Assembly: GCA_964435215.1 (NCBI GenBank)
Contig: CAYSXV010000004.1
Location: 1 to 37,355 of the forward strand
Origin: an uncultured Candidatus Peribacteria bacterium
GTDB taxonomy: Bacteria > Patescibacteriota > Gracilibacteria > Absconditabacterales > Absconditicoccaceae
Length of the DNA: 37,355 bases
Direction of reading: 5' to 3'
This document shows positions 6,518 to 36,021 of the stretch, piece by piece (positions within the stretch are counted from its first letter, which is position 1; each line of letters starts with the position of its first letter). Both the position numbers and the translations under genes were made by a program. The notes beneath the pieces were generated by a model. That model saw only the letters and a list, made by a program, of their open reading frames with translations, was not told where the DNA came from and did not search any database.

Positions 6518-7942
6518 CTATGCTTTTTTTTCTTTGAGTAGAGCAGCTGTGGCTGCGTTACAGAATTCTTCCGAATAGCGGTTACTTTCTATTTGTTTTA
6601 GTAAGGCTGATTGGGAAGCAAATGGACACATCTCAACAAGAATCCTTAGATGATGAACTTTGAGAAAGATTTCATCTATTGAGTTTTGTGAGAGTTTGGG
6701 AATAATAGATAACATTGTTTGATAGTCATCACCAATCTTATTGGCAATTGAGATCAAATTGTTTTGTTCTTCCAGATAGATAGATGCGGCTCTGCATAAC
6801 CCTTCCGGATATTTTTTTTGTTTGAGAATTTCCATGATCTCTACATCAGTTTTCTTTTCGAAATGTAGATATGGAAGTACTTTGGAGCAAAAACCATCAT
6901 CGTATTTTGCCTTTTCCATCAATTCCCAAAGTCCAGGTTCGTCTCTCTTTTTGAGATTGAGTTCTTTGATTGCGATTTTTAGTGCATCATTACTGAAAAA
7001 GTTTTTTCCCAGGACAAAGATAATATTGTCGTCATCCTTGAGAAATGGAATTGCCTTTGGGCAAATACCACTCATGTAGTGATGCTTTTCCAGTAGAGCT
7101 AAGATATCTTCATCCTTTTTACATATGGGGAAGAGAACTTCGCAGGTACTGAAATTATTTTGGCAGGTTTCAAATGCTAACCACATGTTAGCTTTTTGTT
7201 TTAAGGTTGGAACAACGATATTGGCAACGAATGGATGATAGTTTGACTTCTTCATAAGTGTCATCTTTGTTTTTTCATCCGTTATCATAGGAATTCCGTT
7301 GATACATGTTTTGAGATCAAACTTTGATCCTACGATTACTTCCATGATTTCTTTCTTTTTTTTGAGCCGGAGGACTCCGATTTCAGAAATATGATCACGA
7401 TAATTAAATCGTTGCATAACCTTGAGTGCGTTACTGGCAGATAAGTAGGGTATAAGTAAACGACAAATCGTCCAGTTGTAAACTGAATTTTGTACAAGTG
7501 CCCAGCGCCATGATTCTTTTTTTTCTGAGATTTTGAGCAGGGGAATGATAGCATCGCACATGTGAAATCCATACTTTGATTGTTCCATGATTTCTAACAA
7601 TTCCAGTTCTGTTTTGGTCTCCAGTCTGAAAAATGGAATCATATAATGGCAGACAATATCATCGTAACCGCTCTGTTTGATAAGAGCTATTAATTCTTTG
7701 TCTGTCTTGGCTGTGAGAGTGATCCGAGATAGCAACAAAGGTAATAAATCAGAGGAATGACTAGCTTTGGCAATAGGATATAATAAACCCTCAAAACTGT
7801 TTTGTTCCTTGAGTAATGAGATACCCAATCTACATACCTCCACTTCATACTTTGATTGCTCCATAATATTAAGAACTGTTTTTTCAGCGACCGTAATCTT
7901 CTGAGAAATACAAGCTCTAAAAAATCCTGATAAGTGTTTCAT
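6518..7942 (-). CDS. 474-aa alpha-helical repeat protein of unknown family. It is TGA-free and is the last gene of the RT cluster.
   Basis: Uninterrupted ORF with no TGA in 474 codons; all 14 Gly are GGN. About 12 degenerate repeats of roughly 38-42 aa share the pattern hhxhMxxSKYxxxxCxxhhPhLK (for example IMEQSKYEVEVCRLGISLLK, IMEQSKYGFHMCDAIIPLLK, LMEKAKYDDGFCSKVLPYLH). It looks GC-richer than its surroundings. AAGG lies 3 nt upstream of the ATG. Confidence 0.8.
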   Translation of the reverse strand: MKHLSGFFRACISQKITVAEKTVLNIMEQSKYEVEVCRLGISLLKEQNSFEGLLYPIAKASHSSDLLPLLLSRITLTAKTDKELIALIKQSGYDDIVCHYMIPFFRLETKTELELLEIMEQSKYGFHMCDAIIPLLKISEKKESWRWALVQNSVYNWTICRLLIPYLSASNALKVMQRFNYRDHISEIGVLRLKKKKEIMEVIVGSKFDLKTCINGIPMITDEKTKMTLMKKSNYHPFVANIVVPTLKQKANMWLAFETCQNNFSTCEVLFPICKKDEDILALLEKHHYMSGICPKAIPFLKDDDNIIFVLGKNFFSNDALKIAIKELNLKKRDEPGLWELMEKAKYDDGFCSKVLPYLHFEKKTDVEIMEILKQKKYPEGLCRAASIYLEEQNNLISIANKIGDDYQTMLSIIPKLSQNSIDEIFLKVHHLRILVEMCPFASQSALLKQIESNRYSEEFCNAATAALLKEKKA

Positions 7943-8052
7943 AGCCTTATTTGTTTTAGTTATTGATTGTGTTTTTATTATTGTTGGTTTTGTATTTTAT
8001 TAAGTATTACAATATAGATAAGAAAAATAATATCAAGAATAATGTTTTTTTA

Positions 8053-8331
8053 AAAAAATGCCCTGAATAAAAATCCAGGACATAAGTGGTATGGGCAAGT
8101 AAGGTTCCTGTCAGAAATGTAACCTTATTTATAAGGTTATAAATAAGACTGATTTTTATTGATATTCAACTGAATATCTTTTTCTGTCGGAACTTGTCGG
8201 AAATGTAAGGTTACATAAATATCACTTCCTCTTGTCCTAATCATAAATACCTCGTCTCGCAATATGCGGGGACTTTCAAAAGACAAAGCTTTAACCGGCA
8301 TTTAACGTGCAAAATACGCACGGCTTTTTTT
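8053..8331 (-). ncRNA. Structured RNA, paralog 0 of the RT-associated RNA family (diverged copy between the vWA gene and the 474-aa gene)
   Basis: It shares the 20-nt core GTCTCGCAATATGCGGGGAC (8254-8273, + strand notation) with the copies at 15237-15256 and 15559-15578. It also has the same closing stem, AAGTGG(TAT) at 8084-8092 against (ATAT)CACTT at 8219-8227. The two upstream hairpins are replaced by different sequences that still form hairpins (CGTGC..GCACG at 8307-8323; CTTT..AAAG). Confidence 0.55.
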
Positions 8332-10665
8332 TTATTTCTGTTTAAATATTTTTCATTGCATTGCGATAAAATAATCTCTTAACCTTTCTTTTCATTTAGT
8401 CATAATTTCTCAAGCATTATCCAAAAATAATTTCCATTCTGAAGTAAATATTTCAGAAAAATATTCTTTTTCAAAGTCTTGTAATCATAATCATACAAGG
8501 ATATCATTTCAATCAAATCTTTCAGCGACTTCTTTTAGTTCGTCTCAGTCTTTTCATTTATTTGGTTGGCCATCAGTAATAATAATAGGCATAAGTAATA
8601 TATCACGATTTTTTACAAAAAATTCATCTCATTTTTCGAGAATATCTTCTAATCATGATGCAATATCTGTCCTACTTTGTAAATTACTTAACATTCTACT
8701 TATTATTCATTTATTTGAATAATATTGGTCATCAAAAGATTTAATTGAAGTAACTTTTGCTCAAAATGTATTTATATAAAATGGTATTCATAATCTCTCA
8801 CAAAATAATGACATAAAGATTGCAAATGCTAATACTTCAAGAGCGACATCAGACATAGAACCACTAACGTCGATACTTAATGACATTCATAATTGTATAC
8901 GTACAGAATTTTCTTCATCTTCTCTACCATATACATCGTAATGTCACATTTTTATTTTTCTTCATGCTCAAATAATATTATATATTTTACCAGAAAAATA
9001 ATCACCATCTATAGTAATATCTTTTAATTTTGGAATATCATTCATAAGATCTTGTATAAACTCTTCTACTAATGGAGCTATTCTCTGTTCTATAACCTGA
9101 TATTTTTGATAATCATATTCTTGATCTTCAGAGAATCATTGTTCTTTCATCTCTTCTAAAAATCTTTTTCTTTTTTCCAAAAGCATTTTTTTTCTATTCT
9201 GTATCATTTCTTCAGCGGCTTTTCTATTTTTATTTGTCTTTATATTTCATGCTTTTCACTCTTGTTCTTCAAGTTTTTTCCAATCTTTATAATCAAAATC
9301 TTTTATAGTCGATGCAATATCATCAACAGCTTTTTTATCTTTATGAAATTGTTTGATCATATCTTCAATCCTTTTTTGTAGATTATCATCTGGGATTTCT
9401 GATCAAGGTTCTTTATCTTTTCAAGTAGGTTTTTTACTAGATGGAACAATATTTCATTCATCATCAGTATCCCAATCAAATTGAGGCATAGATTTTTTGA
9501 CTTCTTTGAGACCATCATTATCTATTTTTTTCTTTGCACGATCTATGTATGGTTGTTTCTCTTCAGGAGAATTATTTTTCCGCTCTTCATCAATTTTACG
9601 TTGAACTCATTTTTTTTCTATAGGTGTTAAATCTTTGTTGTTGGGCACGTCATCTAGAGAATCCAAAAGATCATCTAAAACTGAATTTCATCATGGTTGA
9701 GATGAATTGGATCATGGGTTGGGTTCAGATTTATTATTTTTTTTTCATTTTTTTGATTTTGATTGAATTAATTTTTTTAATTCTTCTAAATATTTCATAA
9801 GTTTTGCTTGATCATCAACATCTTTTTTAAGAATATCTTCAAGTATAGGCCAAAAGGTAATATTTTTTATTCATATTCTTTTATCGTTATCCATACTGAT
9901 ATCAGCAATCTGTTGTAGATATGGTTTAGCATTTTCTAAATGGATTTTCACTTCATCTGTAATATCTACTTTTACGTTATAATCATTTGGAAAATAATTA
10001 TTTAAATAATAATAAATAACAGCTATTTCAAATTGTTTGATTCTAGGTAGATGCTGAGCAGAAAGTACTCATGTAGAAAATGGTGCTTGTATGTGTCTAT
10101 AAAGCATCTTTATACCATTTTTTCTAACGGCATTTGTTTTTGCTCTCATAGAGTTGATGTAAAAATCTTCTACAACATTAAAAAACCTATGAATAGGAGA
10201 AGATGGAAGTTGTTTGTGATATGCTATCCTATTGCATCTTACAACGTCTTTGAAATCAGATGATAGTGCGTGTTGCATTTCATGTCATTGTACTTCACGC
10301 AATAATTGATCATCTAATTGTAACATCATAGAAAGACTATAGTAGAGATATTTGGGTTCAAAAAGCTCTTCAGGAATTTTTTTAATAGAATAATTTCAGT
10401 TCATATATCATGGAATATATTCATCGATCTCTTCTCCCAATCAACAAGCAAAAGTATCTCAGTCCTTTAATGGTCTAAGAGTAAGCTTTTTGGGGGATAT
10501 ACTGATGAGATATTCTAAATATTCCAACTTGTTTTCTACTAGAGTTTCCAATGCTTCATCAGAAATTTCATCTCAATCAAATAATTGTTTAGCTAAATAA
10601 GCATTGGACAAATTGGGCTCAGTATAATCCGCATATTGAAGTACATCAAATGTTTTGTTTTTCAT
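8332..10665 (-). CDS. HExxH metallopeptidase-like plus von Willebrand factor A (MIDAS) domain protein, 777 aa (resembles the DUF2201_N/DUF2201 partners of MoxR ATPases)
   Basis: The table-25 frame was checked codon by codon and has no TAA/TAG. HEMQH lies at 10270-10284. A charged Lys/Glu/Asp-rich linker follows. The C-terminal vWA domain has the MIDAS motif DVSGSMS (8851-8871) and IIITDGQPN. Its ATG (10663-10665) is 2 nt after the stop of the AAA gene. Confidence 0.8.
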
Positions 10666-10667
10666 TT

Positions 10668-13346
10668 TTATGTATTTGGAGTCTGATTAAAGAGTGTTTC
10701 TAATTTTAGATTTTTATTTGTTCAATAATTTTTTACTTCTTCAAGAACTGTTTCTCTTGATAGAGTTTTTAAATCATTTTTTATAGTTTCTCTATCAGAT
10801 AGAGAGGGGATAGAGTTTATATAAACTTCGATAAACGCCTTTTCAGGAGTATATCATAAACAAAGTAAATATAGCATTTTATTTAAATCTCTTTGTGAAA
10901 CAGAAGATGTTATCTTGCTTGATCTATCTATACCAGTCATTTTCTGGATATATTTACTGCGGAAATAATGAGCATACAAAAGTATTTCATTTATAGATTC
11001 GATTCATTTAATAAATTCTGGATTATAAGAAGATGTCTGTTTTTTATTTATAATATCATTCCATACCTGGATAAATTCTCTATCAGAAAGATATGAATCT
11101 TGCATCTTTGATATTTTTTCTTTTTGATCTTCACGTAATCAGTTACCATTGTGTTCTCTGATAATATAATATTTGATTTCATCAACATCACTTTGTGTGA
11201 ATCCTTCCTTAGATAATAATTTATAAAAATAAGGTACATTTTTGTATGTCATCAAAGCTTCATCATAGTTAACTATATTGTCTGTTATCAGGCTAGGATA
11301 GTCAATAAATTGAAAAAACGCTCTGCTAGAAATTTCAGCTGATAAAACATTGTTTCATTTATATACGTGTGTATTTGGATTCATTGTACCAAATATAAGC
11401 ACACTTTCTTTTGCTTTTTTTGAAGTATCACTATGAGGGAAATATAATTTTCTTCTCATATCCAATAGAGAATTTAATAATTTTGCTACTTCAGGACGTA
11501 GACTGTTAATCTCATCAAGAACCAATATAGCTCATTCAGTTTCAATAGCTTTTACTACTTCAGAATTTAATTTATATGTACCATTTTTATCTATAAGCCA
11601 TAGGTATGTCATATCATCTTTAGTGGTTTTTTCATTACAAGCAAAATTGAATACTGGTCTACCAGTATAATGAGCAAAAATATCTATTGCTACATTTTTA
11701 CCTACACCAGCTTCTCATTCTAAGATACCAAATCAATCTTGAGTAAGTAATTGATACTCAGATAGATGTACTATTTTATGTAATATCTCCATCACTGATG
11801 GAGGAATAACTATTTTAGAATTTAATTCTGGTGCTTTTTTGAGAGCAGAAAACAATCATGGCATAGCATTTATTTTTCTGATAACTCTAAAATAATGAGG
11901 AATATTTTTTTCTATTTCATCTCTTACTTCATGTAAACGCATCTGTAATTCTTGATATTCTGCAGATTTTTTATCTTCAAAGCGAATCAAAGAATCTGTT
12001 AATCTCACTTCTTCAGCAAATAATTCATTACATTCTTGGGTTTTATGAAATGTTGTATATTCTTTCATCATCTTTTTATATTCTTCTTCAGTCATCTTAT
12101 ATGGATTTTCTGGTCTGATTTTTTTCTCATCAGAAGCTTTGATAATTTTTCAGGATTTGATATCTTTTATATTTAGATGTACATTATCATCTACAATTTC
12201 AGGTTCTGCTTTCCATAAACTATTTGGTTTGTATAAGAATCTAGGAAAAACTGCTGATCCAAAATGGACTTCATCTCATCTAACTTTTATTTTAGGGAGA
12301 TTGATCTGTAGTGTAAGTAATTGTTCTTTTTTAAGATCTTCAAGTATTCAAATTAAATAAGTTTTTTTATCCTCAGATAAAAAATTTAATAAAGATTTCC
12401 ATTGTTTAATAATATCTTTTTGTCAGTAAGCTTCCAATTCTTCCTTGCTATGTAATGTTTCGATATCTTCACTGATTACTGTATTTACAAAAATTTCACA
12501 TAGAGTATATATCTCTTTGGTATATGAATCTTTGACATCATCACAAAGTTTTATAAAAAATTTAGCTTCTTCTTCATCTCAAGCAAGCTCTTCATTTTTT
12601 TTATATATAACATCATTCATCTCATCAATCAAAATAGCTATGGGGACAAAAATATCTTTGGTCTTTTGAGCATGACGTAGTTCTTGCACGATACTGTGTT
12701 TTTTTTCATATACCTGTTTGAAATGATCTTGAATATAAGCATTACTAATCAATTCATGAGCGTATGTATAAGATTGGTCATCTAAATATCATTGCTCCAT
12801 AAAATATTTCAATTCTTTTTCGATATTTTTGGAATATTGATAATCGAGAGAAACATTGGAACATATATTTGTTGTCCATTTTAAAAGATTTTGTTGGAAT
12901 AAAGAACTAATAGTATTGCGTAATTGAGTTTTAAGAAAATCTTCTGCTTCAGGATCTCATGTAGCAAAATCATAGGAAATAAGATCATTTATATCATCAC
13001 GTAAAGATTTTTTATTATTTAATAAACTATCATACATATTATTTTCGAGTGAATTTTGTAGTGATTTCCAAGTCTTAGCTTTGGCTTTTTTATGCTGATT
13101 TAGCATGATTTTGATTAATTGAGGAAAAATATCAGTAATCAATTTACTAATCATTTCTTTTTCTTCTTGTGGAATATTGTCACGTGAAAGTGAATCCAAA
13201 AGCTGTTTCTGGACTTCTACTATCATATGTACATCAGCAAAACGATATTCGCCGATATCAGTATTTGATTTAATCTGACTTAATATTTTTGATATACGTG
13301 CCATACTCATGTTGTTGTCTTTTAAGAAATTAAATATTACATTCAC
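10668..13346 (-). CDS. Large MoxR/AAA_5-type AAA+ ATPase, 892 aa, with an uncharacterised helical N-terminal region of about 470 aa
   Basis: The table-25 frame was checked and is continuous. Walker A is GEAGVGKN (11694-11717). Walker B plus the AAA_5-like segment reads AILVLDEINSLRPEVAKLLNSLLDMRRK (about 11455-11538), followed by ...VLIFGTMNP. The ATG at 13344-13346 overlaps the RT stop by 10 nt. Confidence 0.8.
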
Positions 13347-14926
13347 ATATCAGCACCATTTACAATAGAGTAAGAATAATAATTTTTCTTAGCATTTATT
13401 TTTGGGAAATGTTGTTGTTTAGCTGATCGATAATATTTTTCAAATTCATCTGCGACATGTCATTTTAATACTTCACTAGGTCTATTTTCTAATCATTGTC
13501 ATTTTACATCGGCTATGAAACTTCTTATACCATTCAGAGTGTCTGCAAGTAGTAGACCATCAACTTTACCTGTTTTAGGATCTTTGAATTTAATAGGTAA
13601 ATTACTTGGAGCAGTAGCTGCTGTCCTAGCAAATCAAATATATCTTGTCATTTTTTCTTGTGATATTCATAGTCTTCAATCATGACCTATCATGATACCA
13701 TTTACTTCTCTTGCTGTAGAAGCATTACGTCATCGAGATTTACTTTTACTATGCTTTATCTTCCATCAATTATGATTAACTATAGTCTGGATCTCTTGTT
13801 GTAAAAAATCCATTCAATCTGTTCATGGAGTCATATTTACAAATTTTAAGTATCTATCTATTTCTCATATTATGTTGTATCTAGTTTGTTCGAAAACTTC
13901 TATATTATTAAATTGATTATTTGCTGCGTAATCTAATATCTTTTGTTTAATTTTAAGTAACAATGCTCTTACTCTTCATCTGTTATATTCATCATCAAAT
14001 ATTACAGGACATTTTACAAGTTCATTGATATCATTTGATATAGATTGTATCTGAAAAACTGATTCTAAACCACTTTCAGCTTTGTTACTAAAAGTACTTT
14101 CAAGTTTATTATTTGTCTGTATAAGTTGTTGTTCTATATTTATATAATTTTTAAAATCTTTGAAACTGATTGCTATATCATCTATATATCTACTATACAA
14201 TGCATCACTTACAGGTGAAGCTTGGTTATATAAAAATTTTAATATATCCTGATCTGTCTTTGCAAATACAATATTTAATATGCGTGAACTTGTAGGTGCT
14301 CACTGTGGTAATTCATCATTTAATGTAATCAGAACTGTAAGATAAACAAAAAATATTTTCTTTTGTTCTTCATTGAGATAGGGGAATGATAGTTCTAGAT
14401 TTTTGGACATAGCTGTAGAAAGATTTTTATATACTCTATATGCATTTACACTTGGATAAGCATTTTTGATATCAGTAGTATATAAATATTTATTTGGTCT
14501 ATGTAATAATGCATTCTTTTTTGGGCTTGTTCATTTTTCACCACCGACAGTAGCTATAGAAACAGGTACATTTCTAAGAACGTCCAATAAATTCTCTTGA
14601 ATCTGTTTTAAAGGATCGGCAGGAGCGTTTATTGTTCTATATTCTTTTCAATCAGCTTTAAGGATTTTAAATTGAAAATATCATTGAGAAACTTCTTCCT
14701 CTCTGCTGCTGTTTTTTAAGGTAACGGTAGCGAGTGATTTTTCTTTAAGTTTCAATTTAATAACATCGATAAGTGTAGTTATGCTGCAACCACAAAAGTG
14801 AGATAAGGCCTTTAAAATTTCCTTGTCTAGATTGTCTACTGACTTTCTCAGGATATCTTTTTGTTCTTCCAAAAAGTGTTGGTTCTTATCCAAAATTTCT
14901 GCATCTTTATTTTCGGGTGTATGCAT
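13337..14926 (-). CDS. Retron-type reverse transcriptase, 529 aa
   Basis: Manual table-25 translation shows YRTINAPADPLKQIQENLL (motif 1), SPKKNALLH (retron NAxxH region, 14501-14515), YLYTTDIKNAYPSV (motif 2), LPQGAPTSSRILN (motif 4), and YSRYIDDIAISF (YxDD, 14177-14188). REVNGIMIG sits at the position of the retron VTG motif. Stop is TAA at 13337-13339. Confidence 0.9.
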
Positions 14927-14958
14927 GGTTATATTAAATATATATAAATTTATATAAT

Positions 14959-14986
14959 CTTATAATTATTTACTAGTAAATGTCAA
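14959..14986 (-). promoter_or_regulatory. Promoter of the RT operon (TTGACA-N16-TATAAG), copy 1 of a triplicated promoter module
   Basis: On the minus strand, TTGACA is at 14986-14981 and TATAAG at 14964-14959. The block TATAATTATTTACTAGTAAATGTCAATA recurs at 15311-15338 and 15633-15660. Confidence 0.65.
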
Positions 14987-15011
14987 TACGAAGGACTAGA
15001 AAATTTAGAAC

Positions 15012-15303
15012 AAAAAAAGCCCCTGAATGGGGCAAGTGGTACAATGCTTGAGATAGGTCAACGGCAAATAAAGAGCAAATATAGAGCAAATTAAGAGCAA
15101 ATGAGGAGCAAGGAAATGTAGATATAACAAGGGTTATAGTGCTATCTGGAGATTTCTCTAGAGATTTCTCTAGATAGTTATCCGGAGTTATCTGAGTAAT
15201 ATTTCATTTCCACTTTATCTCAATCATCAATGTCTTGTCTCGCAATATGCGGGGACTTCAACAGGAAAGATCCTGTAACGACTAAGAAGGCGTAAGCCTC
15301 GGG
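15012..15303 (-). ncRNA. RT-associated structured RNA, paralog 1 (msr/msd-like candidate), with its own promoter and terminator
   Basis: A promoter sits at 15309-15336. The 5' scaffold of about 110 nt has three hairpins: GAGGC-UUAC-GCCUU, CAGG-AUCUUU-CCUG, and GUC..CGCA-UAU-UGCG..GAC. The closing stem AAGUGG/CCACUU (15211-15216 / 15034-15039) encloses an insert of about 170 nt. The terminator is GCCCC-loop-GGGGC (15019-15033) plus U7. Confidence 0.7.
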
Positions 15304-15308
15304 GACAA

Positions 15309-15336
15309 TATATAATTATTTACTATTAAATGTCAA
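15309..15336 (-). promoter_or_regulatory. Promoter of RNA paralog 1 (TTGACA-N16-TATATA)
   Basis: On the minus strand, TTGACA is at 15336-15331 and TATATA at 15314-15309. It lies immediately downstream of the paralog-2 terminator. Confidence 0.65.
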
Positions 15337-15343
15337 TAGAAGT

Positions 15344-15624
15344 AAAAAAAGAAAAAGCCCCTAAATGGGGCGAGTGGAAGCATGATTTAATAATGTGGTT
15401 TGTGGTGTTCCTTAGTTAGGAATTGAGTTAGGATTTTAGTACGTTGGTATTGAACGTTGCGAAATGTTGTTTCGCATTGCGAATATCAGTTTTCCCTAGT
15501 TATCCGTGGTTATCCCGATAGAATTACCTTTCCACTTTATCATAATCATCAATGTCTTGTCTCGCAATATGCGGGGACTCCAACAGGAAAGATCCTGTAA
15601 CGACTATGAAGGCATAAGCCTCGA
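15344..15624 (-). ncRNA. RT-associated structured RNA, paralog 2, with its own promoter and terminator
   Basis: Its scaffold and promoter are about 135 nt near-identical to paralog 1 (15527-15660 against 15196-15338). The insert (15380-15530) is completely different. The closing stem is AGUGGAA/UUCCACU. The terminator is GCCCC-loop-GGGGC (15357-15371) plus a U-run. Confidence 0.7.
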
Positions 15625-15630
15625 GGGCAA

Positions 15631-15658
15631 TATATAATTATTTACTAGTAAATGTCAA
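15631..15658 (-). promoter_or_regulatory. Promoter of RNA paralog 2 (TTGACA-N16-TATATA)
   Basis: On the minus strand, TTGACA is at 15658-15653 and TATATA at 15636-15631, about 12 nt after the helicase stop codon. Confidence 0.65.
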
Positions 15659-15669
15659 TAGTTAGATTT

Positions 15670-17052
15670 TTATGTCATATTTTCTTGAATAAATTTTTTG
15701 ATTGCTGGATGGAAAAACAGATGTCTCCTTTCTATCTTAGTTAATAATTTAATACCAGCTAAAGTCCTTGATCTGCTAAGTGCTGTATATGCTTGTCATC
15801 AAGTAAAGATACCATAAAGATCTAGTGTACAAGCATCGAAAGTCATTCACTGTGATTTATGGATAGTGATAGAGTAGGCGAGTTTCAATGGTAGCTGTGA
15901 ATAGGTTCATAAGATATCTTCTTGGACTGCTCATTTATCAGTAATAGTAACTTCTTTGTTATATCGAGTTTCTGGTAAGATAGAAATAGTTTCGTTTCAT
16001 ATTTCGACATCAACGAAGTCTTCTCATAGACCTTGTACAAATCACATAGATCAATTGATCCATCTACCTGACATATCGTTGGTAATCATCATGACCTTTG
16101 CTCATTTTTTTAATCTGAGTATATCATCAGCCTTTTTCATACCGTCTGGAAATTTTCATTCAGTTTCTCAATGATAGAGATATTCTTTTCATGATAGTTC
16201 AAATAATTTTTTATTATTTACTGTATCTACTTTGTTTCTATGAGTAGATAATAAAATCACATCTGAATCTGCTTCTCATAGTTGTTTATTTAATACAGAG
16301 AGATGAAAATCTGATATATCTTCATTTCTTATAGCATCTAGAATATCTCAGAAAAATTGATCATGTTCTTGTCTATAATTTTTTTTCAATTCTATGATAT
16401 CATATGGCAGTTTATTTTTAAATGTAATAGAATCAAAAAACCATTCGCTCTCATAATGATTTGCAAATTTATCTTTCCAATCTTGATTACTTACAGGTGG
16501 TAGTTGAAAAACATCTCAAACGAAAATAACTGGCTTACCTCAGAAAGGTTTCCTGGCTAGGCTAGAATCTCAGGTTTCTTTTGCGATATTATATGACATC
16601 AAAAAATTAATACAGTCTATAGTACTAGAGTTCAACATGCTGATTTCATCTATGATAACAAATGGCACATTCATAAGTGTTTTAACTTTTTTCTTTTTGA
16701 GTTTATATTGTCTATTTTTTTTATCTTTTAAATAATGTTGAATATCTTTGAAATATACATTCTCGATTCATAAAGAAAAAAAAGAATGAACAGTCTGTCA
16801 TCATATATTGAGTGCTGAGATACCTGTAGATCAGAGTGCTAGAGGTGGCTTGGATATACCTGTACAAAATTCTATCACATCTTTGATAAGAGTAGATTTT
16901 CCTGTACCTGCTTTACCAGTCAAGAATATACAATTATCTGTAGTATTTAGTTGATTTAGAAATGACAATGCATCAGGATTATCTTTTCGTTTATTTAGAA
17001 TTTTTTTGTATCTAGTTTTTACATCAGAGGATAAGTTATCAATATTTAGCAT
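15670..17052 (-). CDS. PIF1/RecD-like superfamily-1 DNA helicase, 460 aa
   Basis: The table-25 frame was checked and has no stops. Motifs: Walker A LTGKAGTGKST, GSTGISALNIGGQTVHSFF, Walker B VIIDEISM, VGDVFQLPPV, and C-terminal AYSITIHKSQGMTFD. Confidence 0.85.
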
Positions 17053-17080
17053 AAGTAGAGTAGTCGTTGTAGAGTAAAAA

Positions 17081-17479
17081 TTATAATCCTATTTTATTTG
17101 CGATTAGGTAAGTTATTATTGAAACAGATGCTGCAAGAGTTGCTCACCATAATAAATCAATAATAGTAACCAATAATGGCCATCCTTTTATTGTAGCCAA
17201 ATTAGTCAGATCGTATGTTGCATATGTTATCAAACCAAATAATGCACCTAATAATAATGCTTGTATCCATGAACCTTTTTCAAGTGCTGGTCTAATGACA
17301 AATATAACTAGTCCAACGATAAATAATAGATAGAAAATAATTGCTGCTGATCGATTGATATTATTTTTCATTAAAAATCATAGTTGTTTAGCATAGAAAT
17401 TTTTTGCTACTAATCCAAGCCATACCATATCAATAGCAAAAAAAACTGATAGAGCTATTGCATAAAGTTTTATAAACAT
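17081..17479 (-). CDS. DUF2177-like small integral membrane protein, 132 aa
   Basis: MFIKLYAIALSVFFAIDMVWLGLVAKNFYAKQLGFLM...GLITYATYDLTNLATIKGWPLLVTIIDLLWGATL.... It has four hydrophobic segments, and TGA=Gly read-through joins the fragments in the ORF track. Confidence 0.6.
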
Positions 17480-17521: not shown

Positions 17522-18283
17522 TTATTTTACCTCAATCAATCGTTCATTTGTTCTCATGAATGGAATAGTCCGAGGATCATTGTATTGATTTAAAATAGCT
17601 ACAGTATCTGTTGTAATATTTTGTTCTTTTAGTGCTTTTTGGAATATACTAAGTTGTTTATTTGCTCTGGACTCTTGCGCATATCGTGAAAATTTCCATA
17701 CATAATATTTTTTTGCTGGAAGTTCAACAAAAGTGATATTAGGATTGTTTGGTTTAGGTAAAGTTTCTATAGTATATTTGCTTGGCATAGTAAACGTAAT
17801 AAGATAACTATCGCCTTCTTTTTGTGTCCCCACAGGAGCAGTCATAGCAATAGTGCTATTTGTCTTTGTTACTCATACAGGAGCCGTCATGGCAATAGTG
17901 CTATTTGTCTTTGTTACTCATACAGGAGCCGTCATGGCAATAGTACTATTTGTTTTTGTTACTCATACAGGAGCAGTCATGGCAATTGTACTATTTGTTT
18001 TTGTAGTACCTACTGGAGCCGTCATAGCAACTGATGTCTTATTTGTATTTCATCAGAATATATATCACGCTAATTGACGGAATCAATCATTAAGAGCTTT
18101 ATTTTGTGAGCCTGTTACTGATACAACTGCTTGTATCATAGGTCCAATTTCACGCACTTCTATATTCCCAGTTATCATTGTGCTAGAAATAATTTTTGGT
18201 TTTTCGATGCTTCTTGTGCTAAAATATGACCAAGATACTCGTATCACTAATACGATAAATATAATTATAAGAACTATTTTCAT
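17522..18283 (-). CDS. SOUL haem-binding-family protein with an N-terminal signal/anchor and an internal 15-aa tandem repeat
   Basis: The sequence reads ...EKPKIISSTMITGNIEVREIGPMIQAVV...GFRQLAGYIFGGNTNK..., then five copies of (I)AMTAPVG.TKTNST, then ...YLITFTMPSKY...YNDPRTIPFMRTNERLIEV. A single table-25 frame links track ORFs 18083-18283 and 17522-17845. Confidence 0.8.
17832..18045. repeat. 45-bp tandem repeat, about 4.7 copies, in frame within the SOUL gene
   Basis: Units start at 17832, 17877, 17922, 17967 and 18012 (ACAGGAGC[AC]GTCATGGCAATAGTGCTATTTGTCTTTGTTACTCAT). There are only a few substitutions between units. Confidence 0.9.
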
Positions 18284-18450
18284 GGATATATAATAGATAA
18301 AAAAATATAATAAGATTTAACAATCAAATCAATATTTTAGTTTAGATTTAGAGAAAAGTTTTTCAAGTAGAAAAAATATTAATTAGAGTATAAATTTTAA
18401 TTTAAAAAAAAGGAAGATAAAAATCCTCCTATTGGCTACAAATTAATGTG

Positions 18451-18923: not shown

Positions 18924-18974
18924 ATTGATGTTTAATATTATTGAAAATCTAAATTTAGTTAGATAATCTTTATA

Positions 18975-21900
18975 ATGAAAAAATTAATATCTATAATTAT
19001 TTTTATTATGTCCATCTGTTCTTTCAGTGTATATGCAGCACAATTGACATGGGATGCCGTATCTAATGGAGTGACAATAGATGATGGTGTATGAACATGG
19101 AAGGTCTGATTCTTGACTTTTAATGATGGAGCTACAAGCGTTGCGTGGGCTACTGGTAGCGATGCAATAATTGGAAACTGATGAATAGGTTGAGTGATAA
19201 CCGTATCTGGTACCGTTATTCCAAACTCTATCTTATTTTTACCAGTATCTTCAAATTATACATTAAGTGGTGGTATAATTAATTTAACTAATACAAATAC
19301 TATTATAACAACTAGCTGATCAACATCGCCAATAATAAATTCTGTATTATCATGAACAGGTTGATTAACTAAAACGTGATCATGAACACTGACTTTGGGT
19401 GGTACGAATACATATACATGAAACACTACAATTAGTGAAGGAAAAATTATAGCAAACAATATTTATGCATTTGGTTTAACAGGAAATATTTCTGTATCTT
19501 CATGAGCTATACTTGATATTTCATGACTTAATTATTCTGGACAAGATAATATTTTTAGTCGTACAACTGTAGCTACTGGTGGTAGCATAATTTCATCTAT
19601 CCAAACTATAAAATATGATTTTGAATCTGATACATCATGAGTAAGACCAGCAGATATACTTATTGATTATAGATGAGACATGAAAGTTGGATCGATTACT
19701 GGATTAAATTGAAAATGAGCAACGATTTCTTCATCAGGTAGTGCTTGGCCACCAATAATTCCAATTACGTTAACAAAGTTTCCTGCTTCTACAGATTATT
19801 CTGTGATTTGGTTACAATCAAGTGCAAACACAGGATATAAAAATGGAATAACTCTCCGTGCTCAAGCTACAACAGGGACTCATGCAAATTCATGAGTAAG
19901 ACAATGATATCTTTTCCAGGTATCAAATTATAATAACCAATTAATGTTTGCGTTAGTTTGAAGTACATGATATAATATTACAATTAAGGCTGTTACTGGA
20001 GCACTTCCAAATGTTCCTCGTCGATATAAAGCTACAGTAATATGAAATACACAAACTTTTTCATATTCAGATGTTTCTAATAAGTGACCATGGATAGTGG
20101 CTATACAAAAGACATTTTCTAATTATGCTTCATGATATACACAATATACTGATGGATGGAATTATCAGACTTTAAATCTAGCATATATTGATGATGTTAC
20201 TATGCAATATGTTAATTCAACTACTATAGTACCAGATAGACCCAATGCTCCAAGTTTAGTAGAAATGTGATCTACATCAACAACTCTTTGATTTTCTGGA
20301 TATATATTATCTGGGGTGACTCAGTATACTATTACAGCTAACCCAGGAGCTATAACTGCTACAGGAGCAGGTAGTCCATTGACTGTATCTGGACTTTCTC
20401 CATCTACAACATATGCATTTACTTTATCAGCTCAAAATTCAGCAGGATCATCTATGGATTCAATTCCATATACAGGAACAACATCAGCATGAACAACTGC
20501 AACAATAACTTATAGTACAACATGAGCAACAAGTTGAAATGTAATCGCAACTTTAACATGATTAAGTGGAGCAACTATAACAAATAATGGTTGAAGTGAT
20601 GTATATACATTTACATGAAATTGAACTTTTACATTTACATATAGTCAGTGAGCAACTACTGGTAGTGCAGTAGCAACAGTAAATCGAATTGATAAAACCT
20701 CTCCAACTGCAACGATAAGTTACAATCCGACATGAGCAACAAATGGAAATGTGATTGTAACATTGACGTGATTTAGTGAATCAATTACAATTACAAATAA
20801 TGGATGAAGTTCTGGTTACACATTTGTAGGTAACTGAAGTTTTACATTTAATTTCAAAGATGCAGTAGGAAATACATGAAGTACTACGGCTGTAGTAACT
20901 TGGATAAATAATCCTGGGTCATTAACGATTACAAGTCCTGTTCAATATCAAGTAATTCAACGTGATAAAGTTACTAATAAATGATCTATACAGATTGTCG
21001 GTACTTATACTTGATCTGTTTCAGGTATTGAAGCAAGTCGGAATAATGGATGATTTGTAAATATATCAGCAGCTATGAATTGATGAGTATTTACTGGTAC
21101 TCTTACAAATCAAACAGGTGGTCAATGAACACTTATCATACGTTCAACAACTAATACAGAAGATGTAGCAAGCGTATCTATGATATGAGTTTGAGATATT
21201 TTTATTGTAGCATGACAAAGTAACGCTGCTTGATGGGGTTCAAGACCTCAGTTATTTACTGGATCTAATGGTATTACAGCTAGTTTATTTGGTAATGATT
21301 ATAACTGGAAAGCATTAACAGATCCATATGATATTAATACTAATCAAGTAGATGCGGTCAGTCTTGATTCATATACAAATGGATCATTTGTTCCGCTTTT
21401 AGCAACTAAAATTGTCGCTAGTCAGAATATCCCAGTCGCATTTGTACCTACTGCAATGTGATGAACCAATATCAGTGTATGGACTCCATGAGCAAATCAT
21501 TTTGATAGAACTACTCTTTATGGTTCTATGGCATATAGGATTGCTCAAGTATGATGAAAAATAGCTGGAGTACTTTTTTTCCAATGAGAATCTGATGTGA
21601 TGATGAAAAGATCAACAGCATCTTATCAAACAGCATTAAATACAATCGTAAATACTTTACAATCAGATTTTGCAGCTTCATGAACTATTAAATGGTTTGT
21701 ATGATCTATCGGTTCAAATAATTATTCTGGATATGCTATAGATGCAATACGTAAAGCACAACAAGAAATATATTTAACAAATTCATATGTATATTCTACA
21801 AACGCATTAACATACGATATCAATATAGCTGATGAATGAGATGCTAATCTTCATTTTAGATCTGATGGTGATCTAGCTGCTTTTTCAGAAAGACGATGGA

Positions 21901-22847
21901 ATACAATATCAAAAGAATATTATGGATTATCAGTAAATGCTGCACCTAGAATCGTTACTTCATGAGCTGTATTATACAACAATAATTCACTTGTACTTAC
22001 ATTTGATACGCCGATTGCAGAACAGGTTCCATCATCATACACAAACAATCTTGCATGAACTACATATCTTACATGATCAGTATGAGCATTTTGAATTAGT
22101 GGAGGAAATGTTTCTGTAGAATCAGTTTCTCTTTATGGAACAAATTCTATAATCCTTTCTTTGAGTGGAGTAACTTCATGAACAAGTTTGTATATAAATT
22201 ATGCAAATGCTACTTCTTGAGTAAATAAAGCTATATATAGTACTACAAGTTATCAACCAGCATATCCTATTTATAGTATGCCAATTACTGTTAGTGAAGC
22301 TAGCGTAGGATGAGTGTGTGTGTGATGATGAGTTTGAGAAGCTTGTCTAAGTCTAGAAATTACTGCTGTTACCTGACAATGTCGATACTGAGTAAATCTT
22401 GATCTATGAAATCATGATCAAACATATAGCGCATTTACTATGACTGGAGCGTTTACTGGAAATAATTGAACATATCCTCTTAGATGGTCATGTAACGATA
22501 CCGCTTGAAAAGCACCTTGGAATATGCAGATATCTTCAACTGATTTAACAGTTACTTGAACTGCTTATTCTATCCCAAATACTGCTATAGAACTTAAAAC
22601 TGCTGAATTTACAAAATATAGATGAAGCAATTCTTATGCTGGATCTATATGAGCATTTGCTGCGCGAGGTACAAATTTATCTGCCCCAAGAAAAGTTTTT
22701 GAAAAAACTTCGCCTGCTGGTACTGTAGGTGAGATATGAACTGATACGGTAGATCTTAGAGTACTTGTACCTATCAACCAGGAAGTATGAGCATATCAAG
22801 CGACTATAACTATTGCTTATCCTCAGATGTAATTAAAATTATTTAGA
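18975..22847 (+). CDS. Large secreted/surface protein, 1290 aa: signal peptide, autotransporter-associated beta-strand (PATR-like) repeats, an FN3-like module, two beta-repeat modules of about 70 aa, and a SASA/sialate-O-acetylesterase-like (GQSN) domain
   Basis: All 1291 codons were checked in frame and contain no TAA/TAG. TGA=Gly codons are frequent. Signal peptide: MKKLISIIIFIMSICSFSVYA. PATR-like segment: GGLTKTGSGTLTLGGTNTYTGNTTISEGKI. FN3-like segment: PNAPSL...YTITANPG...LSPSTTYAFTLSAQNSAGSS. Duplicated modules: ATITYSTTGATSGNVIATLTG... and ATISYNPTGATNGNVIVTLTG.... Esterase motif: DIFIVAGQSNAAGWG (about 21195-21240). Confidence 0.85.
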
Positions 22848-34014: not shown

Positions 34015-35880
34015 TTATTTATTTTTTGGGGACATTAAGTCTTCAAATTCCTCTCTTGTAAGATATTCCTTATCTAGTAGGATAACTGACATTTTTTCAA
34101 TCAGTGTTTTATTTTTATTTATTATTATTTTTGAGTTTTCATAGCATGATAATAAATATCATTTAATTTTTTGATCTATAAGCTCTGCTGTTTTTTCACT
34201 GTAATTCTTATATAGTTTATAATCTTCTTTGTTCTGATCTCAATATTGTATAGGTCATAGTTCTTCATCCATTCCATACTTTGTAACCATATTGTATATT
34301 ATAGCTGTAGCTTTTTCAAAGTCATTTGATGCTCAAGTTGTTATATTCTCCTTTCAAAAGAATATTTCTTCAGCGGCTCTTCATCACAATAGCGATGTTA
34401 CCTCATCCATAAACTTTGATTTGGAATATAGATATTTATCTTCATTGGGTAATATCCATGTAACTCATAATGCTTGTCATCTACGAACTATTGATATTTT
34501 TTCTACTGGGTCTGCATGTGGCAATATATGAGATGTGATAGCATGTCATAATTCGTGGTATGCTATTATTTTCTTCTCTTCTTCTGTTACTCATTTTCAT
34601 TTTTTCTCTGGTCACATCAATGTTTTTTCTAATGCATATTCAAAGTCTTTTGCTTCTATTACACTTCTGTTTTCTTTTGCTATTTTCAAAGATGCTTCAT
34701 TTGTTATATTCTCTATATCTGCTCATACTAATCAACTTGTTCTTTTGGATAATGATTCTACTTTAACATCTTTTGATATTTTCTTTTTCTTGAGGTAGTA
34801 ATTGAATATTTCTATTCTTTCCTCATATGTGGGAGCTCAAACCATAACCTTTCTATCAAATCTTCATGCTCTGAGTAGAGCTGGATCAAGTACATCTGGT
34901 CTATTTGTAGCTGCTATTACTATTATTTTTGTAGTATTATCAAATCAATCCATTTCAGTTAATATCTGATTTAGAGTCTGTTCTTGTTCTTGATGTCATC
35001 ATGTAAAACCAGATCCTCTCTTTTTACCTATAGCGTCTATCTCATCTATAAATATTATTGCTCTTCATACTGCTTTTGCTTTTCAGAATAGCTCTCTTAC
35101 TTTTGCAGCTCACATTCATACCAACATTTCCATAAATTCTGATCAAGAAGCGCTAAAGAATGGTACAGATGCTTCTCAAGCTACTGCTCTAGCAAGTAGT
35201 GTTTTACCTGATCATGGTTGTCAATAAAGTAGAACTCATTTGGGATGTCTTGCTCATACTTTGTGATATTTTTCAGGATTTTTTAGATAATCTACGATTT
35301 CACTTAGCTCTGCCTTTACTTCTTCCATTCATGCTACATCTGAAAATTTTGTTTTACTTTGATCTTTAGCGGCCTGTTTTCCTACTTTTATGTTAAACGG
35401 GAATCAACCTCATTTGGGCATAGCAAATTTTGCAAGGAAAAATAGTACAACCAAAAATAAAATCAATGGTCAGACTTGTTCTAATATCTTTTGAAAGACT
35501 CAAGTTTCTGTAAATTCAATCTCTATTTTTGTTTTTCAATTAATATTTATTCATAAATCTTTTAATGAAGTATCTGTAGGTTTATATGAACTATAAATAT
35601 TGAAAAAATCTTTTTTTAAGGTCTTATTTATAGACATAAAAGATTTATCTTCTCAAGTTCATAGAAATTGATATCATTGTAGTTTAGTGTCATTTATTAT
35701 CTTTATATTGGAAAATGTTCATGAATTATAAAATTTCAACCATTGGTCCAAAGATAGATCTTTTTTTTCTTTTATAGTTTGGATTGTATTATTTTCAAAA
35801 ACATTACTACTTTTATAAATTTGAAGTAATCACATCATAATAACTATAAACAATATCGTGAATATTATGCCCTTTTTCAT
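34015..35880 (-). CDS. ftsH: ATP-dependent zinc metalloprotease FtsH, 621 aa
   Basis: An N-terminal TM segment comes first. Walker A is GVLLYGQPGSGKTLLARAVAGEA, with a Gly = TGA at 35212-35214. Further motifs are [34 protein letters not shown], and the zinc site HELGHAI. Confidence 0.95.
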
Positions 35881-36021
35881 AAATTTTTAAAAAACTAAAT
35901 AAATATGTCTCTTTAGTATACAAAATTAGGTTAAGATTTCAATTAAAAAGTTTAAAGTTGAAAGTGAAAAGCAGAATGTTAAAAGTAAGTTGAAATATTT
36001 AATTAATAATTTTTATTTGTT

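Follow-up and report, generated by a model that had tools for sequence, protein, structure and literature searches.

The 37,355-nucleotide contig CAYSXV010000004.1 (assembly GCA_964435215.1), from an uncultured Candidatus Peribacteria bacterium and referred to below in its full length as the window, carries a locus in which the gene for a retron-class reverse transcriptase (RT) is accompanied by three non-coding RNA units, each comprising a conserved scaffold and a variable part. The variable parts contain short words that recur in phase with the turn of the double helix, belong to a vocabulary shared with distant relatives of the locus and may represent an array of protein-binding sites. Among named genomes, the nearest relative of the RT locus is a 'Candidatus Absconditabacterales' genome.

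When read with the standard bacterial code, the window yields only 14 open reading frames (ORFs) of at least 80 aa in 37 kb, while a dense gene map emerges once TGA is taken as a sense codon. In the gene encoding FtsH (34015-35886, minus strand), about 22 of 28 TGA positions align with glycine residues of a solved FtsH, the Walker A loop included, and the genetic code of the host is, judging from this alignment, code 25, with TGA standing for glycine; this codon makes up about 69% of the glycine codons. Standard ORF calling therefore fails on this DNA: table 11, which returns almost no genes since TGA is a sense codon, was discarded, and all protein analyses were carried out on translations with TGA read as glycine.

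The reverse transcriptase and its neighbouring genes

The RT gene (13337-14926, minus strand, 529 aa) is located directly downstream of RNA copies 2 and 1, and is followed on the same strand by the genes for an AAA_5 (MoxR/dynein-type) ATPase (10668-13310, 880 aa) and a vWA-like protein (8332-10665, 777 aa), and finally by RNA copy 0. In retron RTs, region X is defined as an NAXXH motif between RT2 and RT3, and region Y as a VTG triplet in RT7 (PMC7736814). The RT of the window possesses a YIDD motif, the region X sequence NALLH (residues 138-142) and, in region Y, the triplet VNG, for which the family consensus is ITG. Across 12 family members, N138 and H142 of region X are invariant and A139 nearly so; around region Y, the family consensus reads KEITGVMIG and the window protein REVNGIMIG, so that the G is kept and the V and T not strictly. 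The protein matches Pfam RVT_1 (1.3e-11), the best 25 of 40 PADLOC matches are all retron RT models, headed by RT_VI (5.5e-35, 119 bits), and 12 of 12 PDB matches are retron RTs, the PADLOC and PDB matches covering the RT core only. Besides this core, the only protein parts common to all loci of the family are a family-specific helical insertion of about 125 aa (residues ~261-385) between YIDD and the region Y triplet, and a conserved C-terminal extension (residues ~420-529). The AlphaFold model of the RT is too poor for fold assignment (pLDDT 63, pTM 0.40).

The AAA_5 ATPase (PF07728, 7.2e-23), which also adjoins the RT in the related loci L001 and L002, has a long N-terminal region without assigned function. 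The 777-aa protein carries a MIDAS-type DVSGSMS sequence in its C-terminal part and an HEMQH (HExxH) sequence in its N-terminal third; its match to PF00092 (E=0.0011, 19.6 bits) falls under the gathering cut-off of 23.8 bits, with the DxSxS motif present. Given the HExxH sequence, the protein may join a metallopeptidase-like region to the vWA-like domain, a combination that no family match supports. Neither of the two proteins is matched by the retron accessory models of PADLOC.

Transcription and architecture of the RNA units

The minus strand carries the three best sigma-70-type promoter matches in the interval 7900-15800 (15658, 15336 and 14986) as well as three terminators (15371-15357, 15033-15019 and 8083-8058). 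Because the promoters and terminators bracketing the copies are all on this strand, the RNAs are minus-strand transcripts, and the motifs listed in the first-pass annotation of this DNA, taken there as the RNA strand, therefore belong to the antisense strand, that is, they have the sense of any complementary DNA (cDNA). The promoter of copy 2 (15629-15658, TTGACA-N18-TATATT) is the best match of the interval, agreeing with the consensus at 11 of 12 positions, as does that of copy 1 (15307-15336); the third, ahead of the RT operon (14957-14986), agrees at 10 of 12. All three form part of a 28-nt repeat (14961-14988, 15311-15338 and 15633-15660), and in each the spacer between the -35 and -10 elements holds the perfect 14-bp palindrome ATTTACTAGTAAAT. 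Slightly altered forms of this palindrome are conserved in L001 and L002, and it may be the operator through which a repressor acts on the RNA genes and the RT operon.

Each unit is organised, from 5' to 3', into a hairpin (P1), a three-way junction, a helix (P3) closing around the variable part, and a terminator; the junction combines a closing helix (P2), a hairpin (P2a) and a nearly invariant hairpin (P2b, GUCCCCGCAUAUUGCGAGAC). A given RNA is either transcribed from a promoter of its own or placed behind the operon. Copy 2 (15346-15627, minus strand), which scores 122.6 bits with covariance model R1, has P1 at 15609-15622, a junction with P2a at 15583-15598 and P2b at 15559-15578, a P3 helix with its 5' strand at 15530-15536 and its 3' strand at 15373-15379, a variable part at 15380-15529 and a terminator at 15357-15371 followed by a T run. 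The corresponding elements of copy 1 (15012-15305, minus strand) are P1 at 15287-15300, P2a at 15261-15276, P2b at 15237-15256, P3 at 15208-15214 paired with 15034-15039, the variable part at 15040-15207 and the terminator at 15019-15033. Copy 0, of the downstream type (8050-8330, minus strand, covariance score 105 bits), has P1 at 8306-8322, P2b at 8254-8273, P3 at 8223-8229 paired with 8084-8089, the variable part at 8090-8222 and the terminator at 8058-8083.

The scaffold is supported by covariation. Over 13 units, 93.9% of the junction positions are paired, against 80.9% in shuffles (none of 500 reached 93.9%) and at most 49% in slid controls, and nine pairs show double changes. Helix P3 is likewise kept despite sequence change, being GUGGAA/UUCCAC in the window, CCUGCG/CGCAGG in L007, CGUGCG/CGCACG in L095 and AUCAUGAA/UUCAUGAU in L004. 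Its 5' strand is always followed by a purine- and G-rich run (AAGG, GAAAGGGGAG, GAAGAGGGGG), in which no single G can be assigned as a priming guanosine, and the variable part is kept at a length of 117-209 nt across the family. The whole window gave no match in Rfam 15 at gathering thresholds, permissive scans of the RNA loci returned only noise (E>2), and no tRNA or tmRNA was found in the window.

A rare family of RT-RNA loci

A word-indexed search for relatives of the RT gave 12 full-length proteins, and an exhaustive profile search of 1.84 billion representatives approximately 30-35 full-length RT clusters; scans of genome, metagenome and viral RTs added L011 as the sole further full-length relative, the rest being ordinary retron RT domains. 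This RT type is rare. In every readable locus, at least one promoter-RNA unit is located upstream of the RT and on the same strand: L001 (85% RT identity) has three units upstream and two behind its vWA gene, L002 has three, L006 two, and L003, L004, L005, L007, L094, L095 and L011 at least one each. In the window, a covariance model derived from the close copies detects the three units and nothing else, and it extends to L094 and L004; with a second-round model, L003, L007 and L095 are recovered as well, at the positions predicted. Just upstream of these distant RTs, the scaffold model gives E-values of 6e-20 (L094), 1e-17 (L004), 0.009 (L003), 0.01 (L007) and 0.035 (L095).

The accessory genes vary by sub-clade. 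The window clade has the AAA_5 ATPase and the vWA-like protein; a second group has a TrmB-family regulator and a large unknown protein upstream, and a protein of 230-513 aa downstream; L006 encodes proteins of 1536 and 497 aa. Only the RT and the RNA are thus constant.

Some of these loci hold further elements. A second, unrelated conserved unit of promoter, RNA and terminator lies upstream of the RT-associated RNA in L003 (8540-9135) and L094 (4900-5300); its core is GAGTATTCGATCC[TA]GTAGATAAAC[AT]GTTG, and the L003 version holds GATGTAAGT three times. In L001, some 240 nt of additional sequence (9020-9260) lie between upstream RNA units one and two, with a small GC hairpin (GGGGCGGGAAAAGCCCC) and no match to the scaffold model.

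Phased repeats in the variable parts of the window

According to the first-pass annotation, the variable inserts are built from short direct-repeat doublets spaced about one helical turn apart. The motif positions on which this claim rested are exact for copy 1 (AGAGCAAAT at 15072, 15083 and 15094, GAGATTTCTCTA at 15149 and 15161, AGTTATC at 15176 and 15186), for copy 2 (TGTGGT at 15394 and 15401, AGTTAGGA at 15414 and 15426, ACGTTG at 15441 and 15454, TTGCGAA at 15457 and 15477, GTTATCC at 15499 and 15509) and for TGTCGGAA in copy 0 (8185 and 8195). The other doublet listed for copy 0, GAAATGTAA[CG][CG]TTA, is not phased, its two copies (8114 and 8200) being 86 nt apart. Read on the RNA strand, the variable part of copy 1 contains GATAACT twice at 10 nt, TCTAGAGAAATC twice at 12 nt as overlapping palindromes, and ATTTGCTCT three times at 11 nt with degenerate copies on either side. 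That of copy 2 contains GGATAAC twice together with GGAAAAC on a 10-nt lattice, the dyad TTCGCAATGCGAA with another TTCGCAA at 20 nt, TCCTAACT twice at 12 nt, and CAACGT and ACCACA twice each. The variable part of copy 0 is largely hairpin-forming and has one phased pair, TTCCGACA twice at 10 nt.

These repeats were compared with 2000 dinucleotide-preserving shuffles, counting exact repeats of at least 6 nt at offsets of at most 25 nt. Copy 1 (15040-15200) has nine repeats against 1.05 expected (P<5e-4), and copy 2 (15385-15525) five against 1.13 (P=0.007, or P=5e-4 by bases covered), of which chance alone would supply about one of the 6-mer pairs (TGTGGT, ACGTTG); when the count is restricted to pairs of 7 nt or more, the variable part of copy 2 gives P=0.002. 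Copy 0 (8085-8235), with two repeats against 0.76 expected (P=0.18), shows no significant excess on its own. In a ranking of every 150-nt stretch of the 37 kb by repeat content, copy 1 comes first, copy 2 falls in the top 2-6% and copy 0 is ordinary. The excess of doublets over shuffled sequence thus holds for copies 1 and 2, and fails for copy 0 taken alone.

A shared vocabulary of helically phased words

For the family as a whole, 20 variable parts (the segments between the P3 strands) from 12 loci were compared, with RT identities down to 30-40%. In this set, 76 exact pairs are counted (7 nt or longer, offset 7-25 nt), against 7.4 ± 2.9 in shuffles (maximum 18), and 14 of the 20 units are individually significant. 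The offsets are 10 nt (32 pairs), 11 nt (10), 12 nt (6) and 20-22 nt (22), with none at 14-18 nt. Once harmonics are removed, a one-turn class with a mean of 10.37 nt (n=52) and a two-turn class with a mean of 20.76 nt (n=17) are obtained, both amounting to about 10.4 nt per turn, which is the solution repeat of B-form DNA. A word repeated with this period presents all its copies on the same face of a duplex, and the proposed spacing of one helical turn is sustained, best at the family level.

The words of the two-turn class are dyad-symmetric (TTCGCAnTGCGAA, ATGTAA(CC/GC)TTACAT, TGTTGCACGGTGCAACA, GTGTCAGTTTCTGACAC and TGTGAAnCATTCACA), and those of the one-turn class asymmetric (AGTTATCC, AGTTTTCC, AGTTAGCA, ACTAACT, TTTGCTCT and TTCCGACA). 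Words are 7-12 nt long, dyads being longer, and non-palindromic words are repeated two to five times at 10-11 nt; AGTTATCCGGAGTTATCC is an example of a phased pair. For perfect dyads, 53 cases with a centre of 0-2 nt stand against 14.4 expected (3.7-fold), and 31 cases with hairpin-type gaps of 3-8 nt against 22.8, a test that is only suggestive because long arms could still fold. By inspection of start positions, neighbouring modules abut at steps of 10-13 nt, with up to six words in one continuous lattice, as for instance at positions 102-154 of the L007 variable part.

This small vocabulary, which includes AGTTATCC, AGTTTTCC, AGTTAGCA and TGTAACCTTACA, is common to RT lineages at 35-40% identity, ATGTAACCTTACATTTCC being identical in copy 0 of the window and in L007. 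It is also independent of orientation: the 8-mers common to both clades number 57 as reverse complements against 31.7 expected (P=0.006), and 45 in the same orientation against 32.6. The copy 1 sequence GATAACTCCGGATAACT is the reverse complement of AGTTATCCGGAGTTATC in L007, an identity of 17 nt that includes the spacer, and CTAGGGAAAACT of copy 2 is the reverse complement of AGTTTTCCCTAG, present in L003 and L006. In the paralogues L1_D and L1_E of L001, two copies of TTCCGACA and two copies of TGTCGAAA, which are near reverse complements, occupy the same position. In columns aligned between orthologues, words are 72% identical against 63% elsewhere (P=0.0013), a modest gap that comes from orthologue comparisons not independent of one another. 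Word pairs are gained, lost or inverted as wholes: AGTTATCC is present twice in L007 and absent from L095, and the reverse is true for CAGTTAGTAA.

The same organisation, as predicted, was found in two hold-out loci that were fetched after the pattern had been defined. L337 contains GCGAGCCGTTC 2.7 times at 11 nt together with tight dyads, and in the truncated locus L338 a word known from copy 1 is used again, as an imperfect TCTAG(A/G)GAAT pair at 10 nt. The homologous RNAs of other genomes keep the doublets, a point on which the first-pass proposal had been made to depend, so that the refuting conditions set there leave it standing. Outside the RNAs, in 159 kb of flanking genome from ten loci, the words occur at or below expectation and no phased AGTT-type pair was seen; the words were accordingly dismissed as general chromosomal motifs, a single extra match of GTAACCTTAC falling within coding sequence.

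Pairs such as these could have arisen without any function, through neutral replication slippage in AT-rich non-coding DNA, since short tandem duplications are common in AT-rich spacers and copy 0 alone does not exceed chance. Such an origin is nevertheless very improbable: the ten-fold excess is confined to two narrow offset classes, the same words recur in both orientations across RT lineages that are 35-40% identical, the words are more conserved than the spacers, and the flanking genome has no such pairs.

The variation in copy number between orthologues (TTTGCTCT is present three times in copy 1 and five times in L1_C, and GGATAACTC four times in L004) brings to mind slippage of another kind, in which the nascent cDNA would re-anneal to a neighbouring word and the RT would stutter, producing tandem-repeat or length-variable cDNA. 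In a more detailed version, a pair would be comparable to the template of telomerase, with about 1.5-2 copies of its unit, and the process would have left its mark in the genome as arrays of 3-5 copies. The repeats do sit in the presumed template of the RT, and there are precedents both in type VI retrons, in which 7-nt direct repeats allow the cDNA of one to pair with the other (10.1101/2025.10.22.683967), and in the repeat-guided jumping of DRT2 (PMC12039810). However, neither the dyad-symmetric words at 20-22 nt and the tight dyads, nor the retention of a pair as its reverse complement in another clade, nor the stringing of three to six different pairs in one template is explained in this manner; in addition, the spacers differ between copies while the words are identical, which argues against recent whole-unit duplication. 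Realignment is thus an unlikely explanation, in its detailed version as well. The first-pass idea that the repeats offer microhomologies for template jumping survives in part, in that jumping could still take place, while the palindromic words and the independence of orientation are left unaccounted for.

A B-DNA period combined with independence of orientation is also what would be expected of genomic sites. The words could then act in chromosomal DNA, as operators through which regulators block or tune the transcription of the RNA genes and the RT operon, with the RNA loop merely tolerating them. The palindrome in the promoter spacers would be in keeping with such regulation, as would the TrmB-family genes located upstream of the RNA in L003, L004, L007 and L094, all of the distant clade. 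On the other hand, there are at least 15 different sites per locus, far beyond what the regulation of one operon needs; the sites always lie inside the segment of 117-209 nt bracketed by P3; they are not found elsewhere in the 159 kb; and Pfam and PADLOC scans of the window proteins revealed no regulator gene in the locus of the window clade. The odds are consequently set against operators of this kind, which we regard as unlikely.

Structure and coding capacity of the variable parts

If the words were read at the level of RNA, they would be bound as single strands or hairpins, by analogy with a CsrB-like sponge or scaffold, or would determine the fold of the template, and the product of the RT would be irrelevant. 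Several variable parts are indeed significantly structured compared with shuffles (mean z of -2.7, with -6.2 for L007 and -3.9 for copy 0), hairpins of the type UAA(C/G)CUUA recur among them, and both L095 and L007 contain a pair with its inverted counterpart behind it, which would form two short helices one turn apart (7 bp each in L095). Some words would therefore be shown as a duplex even within a single strand. Nonetheless, a word and its reverse complement are different RNA molecules and both orientations are conserved, the strict period of 10.4 nt has no obvious meaning for single-stranded RNA, and copy 1 (z=-0.16), L1_C (z=-0.19), L2_B and L2_C are no more structured than shuffles, so that modules acting as RNA appear quite unlikely. 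The folds also differ between the window copies, copy 2 (z=-2.3) having small local hairpins only and copy 0 a composite hairpin.

The absence of an open frame and the fold of copy 1, no better than that of shuffled sequence, bear out the first-pass statement that the inserts are neither coding nor simple hairpins. A coding, DRT2-like template was rejected, as the doubled variable parts of the AT-rich units have no open frame on either strand. A diversity-generating retroelement (DGR) was rejected as well, no counterpart in the form of a variable repeat being present and the rest of the window giving only chance-level matches of 10-13 nt (E>=0.04).

The first-pass annotation had further proposed searching phage sequences for the motifs. 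At least 120 matches were obtained for each of AGTTATCC and AGTTTTCC, which is about the chance level by a rough estimate and not by a formally computed expectation. Among the matches listed, the arrays in which phages carry AGTTATCC consist of complete DnaA boxes, AGTTATCCACA(G), spaced at 11-12 nt (43 + 80) and almost never at 10 nt (2), and arrays of AGTTATCCACAG have a period of 11-12. Since the phage arrays are DnaA boxes with a different period, the search cannot support a phage origin and was uninformative. A canonical DnaA-box cluster (9-mer TTATNCACA) was rejected for the RNAs, whose words end in TTATCC or TTTTCC followed by bases other than ACA, with a period of 10.

One might still regard AGTTATCC and AGTTTTCC as weak DnaA boxes and the array as a decoy that titrates a host or phage replication initiator, given that AGTTATCC occurs in phage contigs almost only as AGTTATCCACA(G) within DnaA-box clusters (among the matches listed) and that some RNA words, such as TTATCCAGA and TTTTCCCCA in L007, agree with the box at 8 of 9 positions. 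A decoy of this type is highly improbable, because the terminal ACA that a box requires is missing from the RNA words, a period of 10 leaves no room for it and differs from the 11-12 nt of the phage arrays, and most words (AGTTAGCA, TGTAACCTTACA, TTCGCAATGCGAA, TTTGCTCT) are unrelated to DnaA boxes.

A possible array of duplex-binding sites amplified by the RT

The interpretation tentatively preferred here is that the words are phased recognition sites for one or more duplex-binding proteins, displayed in an array that the RT amplifies and that serves as a bait, a sensor or a platform for the neighbouring effectors. The repeats would form the template-like ('msd-like') segment of three retron-like non-coding RNAs. 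The 5' scaffold, that is, P1 and the three-way junction, presumably docks the RT. By analogy with the priming of retron RTs at a1/a2, the inner end of P3 is the most likely priming site, from which the RT would copy the variable part into multicopy DNA. This DNA could then display the array of sites in many copies, as bait, sensor or assembly platform, and report to the adjoining variable effectors, here the MoxR-like AAA+ ATPase and the vWA protein. Each pair would constitute one module, recognised in duplex nucleic acid by a sequence-specific protein in the form of a dimer or a tandem pair.

A pair is read as one recognition module because the vocabulary is shared, both orientations work and whole pairs are exchanged; that the modules are read in a duplex follows from the 10.4-nt period, the two-turn dyads, the independence of strand, the selection on words and their cassette-like turnover. 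Reverse transcription is the most economical means by which such sites could acquire a purpose, because the words always lie inside the P3-bracketed segment of an RNA tied to a retron-class RT. From these features we infer that the variable part would be reverse transcribed, that its product would be duplex and bound by protein, and that this binding would have a signalling role.

As to the binding partner, phage regulators had been put forward in the first-pass annotation; the recurrence of the same words at 35-40% RT identity, beside different accessory genes, speaks against them. A vocabulary so deeply conserved amid changing accessory genes suggests a conserved partner, which could be a cellular protein or the extra domains of the RT itself, in preference to fast-evolving phage regulators, and this tempers the first-pass idea of a decoy.

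Several points weigh against an RT-amplified array of binding sites. Its weak links are the cDNA of the variable part, none having been observed, the formation of a duplex, as direct repeats alone leave a single-stranded cDNA unpaired and a mechanism for second-strand synthesis is not evident, and the cognate binding protein, none having been identified. No DNA-binding domain was detected in the accessory proteins of the window, and the RT is the only protein common to all loci. Inverted pairs able to fold into a duplex occur in some units only (L095 and L007), copy 0 and some other units carry a single pair, and the independence of orientation fits chromosomal binding sites equally well. The limits stated above for the tight dyads and for the conservation of words relative to spacers belong here, too.

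A broader proposition would be that a rare clade of retron-like RTs, centred on Absconditabacteria-type bacteria, uses reverse transcription to amplify a modular library of duplex protein-binding cassettes as bait, decoy or platform for DNA-binding proteins, whose binding would be coupled to varied effectors such as a MoxR-vWA pair. This must be considered doubtful, and so must its corollary that a conserved word, paired in helical phase, makes up one cassette and that several RNA genes per locus share the cassettes among them.

Comparison with known systems

Arrays of the iteron, operator or centromere-like type, such as plasmid iterons, ParR-parC, response-regulator repeats and phage operator pairs, have words at 10-11 bp and dyads at about 21 bp, may combine two direct copies with one inverted copy, and work independently of orientation; they employ one or two words and are sited at origins, promoters or partition sites. 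The arrays described here resemble them in word spacing, dyad spacing, the arrangement of two direct copies plus one inverted copy, and independence of orientation. The helix-phased words, dyad-symmetric ones among them, show the operator- or iteron-type format that was recognised in the first pass, with direct words at 10-11 nt, dyad words at 20-22 nt and the 3.7-fold excess of tight dyads. In contrast to the known arrays, up to six words occur here within a transcribed, RT-associated RNA gene, and no cognate protein is known. Telomerase RNA, for its part, is bound by an RT and carries, in a single template per RNA, just under two copies of its unit, which allows realignment; palindromic words and orientation flips, however, are not found in the telomerase template.

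Retrons consist of an RT and an msr-msd RNA that gives rise to the multicopy single-stranded DNA known as msDNA, and have been divided into types I-XIII (Mestre et al. 2020, PMC7736814). The present loci have in common with them a retron-class RT with NAxxH, an RNA gene directly upstream on the same strand, variable effector genes alongside, and an RNA in which a conserved structured part is combined with a variable part within an inverted repeat; the region Y triplet (ITG in the consensus, VNG in the window) is related to VTG without strictly retaining its V and T. They differ in that the scaffold is placed 5' of the bracketing helix and P3 encloses the variable part only, instead of a1/a2 at the ends around both msr and msd; in that there are three to five RNA genes per RT, each with promoter and terminator; in that phased direct and dyad words, arranged as a lattice, stand in the variable part where retrons have one long msd hairpin; and in that the RT is enlarged by the insertion of about 125 aa and by the C-terminal extension, in a host that uses code 25. 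The effector pair AAA_5 and vWA-like protein matches none of the 13 types, and the term 'vWA' is absent from PMC7736814. Type VI retrons with a hybrid RNA, to which the best PADLOC match of the RT points, have conserved short direct repeats that are proposed to act via cDNA, although these form one 7-nt pair in two distant loops and control the translation of a toxin ORF located within the RNA (10.1101/2025.10.22.683967), whereas many adjacent pairs at helical period and no ORF are present here.

In DRT2, the template lies between rigid 5' and 3' RNA scaffolds, and the cDNA becomes functionally double-stranded and carries a promoter (PMC12039810). The template segment held between scaffolds is a likeness, and DRT2 sets a precedent for functional sites on cDNA (PMC12039810, PMC11100668). 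Nevertheless, the RT of DRT2 belongs to a group II-like (UG2) clade while the present RT best matches retron RTs, the single DRT2 template is read round and round and encodes an ORF whereas no open frame exists here, and flanking repeats for rolling-circle copying are missing from the RNAs of the window. The vWA-MoxR conflict systems associate a MoxR-type AAA+ ATPase, a vWA protein and a third component (VMAP) with a sensing or diversifying module, some of them using a DGR-type RT (Kaur et al. 2020, PMC7159879). A comparable association may be formed here by the AAA_5 protein (7.2e-23) and the adjoining vWA-like protein (19.6 bits against a cut-off of 23.8), but with a retron-class RT and no DGR pair of template and variable repeat.

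In the literature searched, neither a link of retrons with these lineages or with MoxR/vWA partners nor a description of phased word arrays in an RT template was encountered. The features undescribed there are the presence of several template RNAs per RT, the permuted RNA architecture and the phased, orientation-independent vocabulary of words, and there is a realistic chance that the word arrays embody a new working principle. Reverse-transcribed DNA from retron and defence RTs is known to be used as hairpin msDNA with an antitoxin or sensor function, in gene synthesis and as homopolymers. Sites on RT-made DNA, if confirmed, would represent a principle of sensing or decoy distinct from hairpin msDNA, from the gene synthesis of DRT2 and from homopolymer synthesis, as well as a natural design for expressing arrays of DNA-binding sites in cells, and this in ultra-small, recoded episymbiotic bacteria in which defence and regulation are almost unknown. 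The hypothesis of an amplified site array gives clear predictions on spacing, orientation and mutations of words.

Other features of the window

A gene for a PIF1-like helicase (15670-17088, minus strand) is located directly upstream of the RNA array and on the same strand; a PIF1 gene is likewise found about 3 kb upstream in L001, and the adjacency may reflect either synteny or a functional link. Beside copy 0, a TGA-free ORF (6518-7942, minus strand) encodes a lineage-specific protein of 474 aa, built from helical repeats of about 27-31 aa each. It was considered as an RT or as a part of the system and rejected, given that it matches no Pfam or PADLOC family, is absent from L001, and has an SR1 homologue without an RT nearby. 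None of its 14 glycine codons is TGA (P=8e-8 compared with neighbours), its GC content is 36% against about 28%, and its homologues are confined to SR1/Absconditabacteria, one of them being in a genome of higher GC content and low TGA usage. This composition indicates that the ORF was probably acquired by recent transfer and stands outside the RT system.

Further away, the gene at 17522-18316 (minus strand) encodes a predicted membrane-anchored protein and contains, at 17787-18056, a 45-nt (15-aa) repeat five times in tandem, with TKTNSTIAMTAPVGV units. The largest gene of the window (18963-22832, plus strand) encodes a secreted-looking protein of 1289 aa that is rich in Gly, Thr and Ser; it has 80 TGA codons and internal 210-nt repeats, with repeats at 20494-20580 and 20704-20790.

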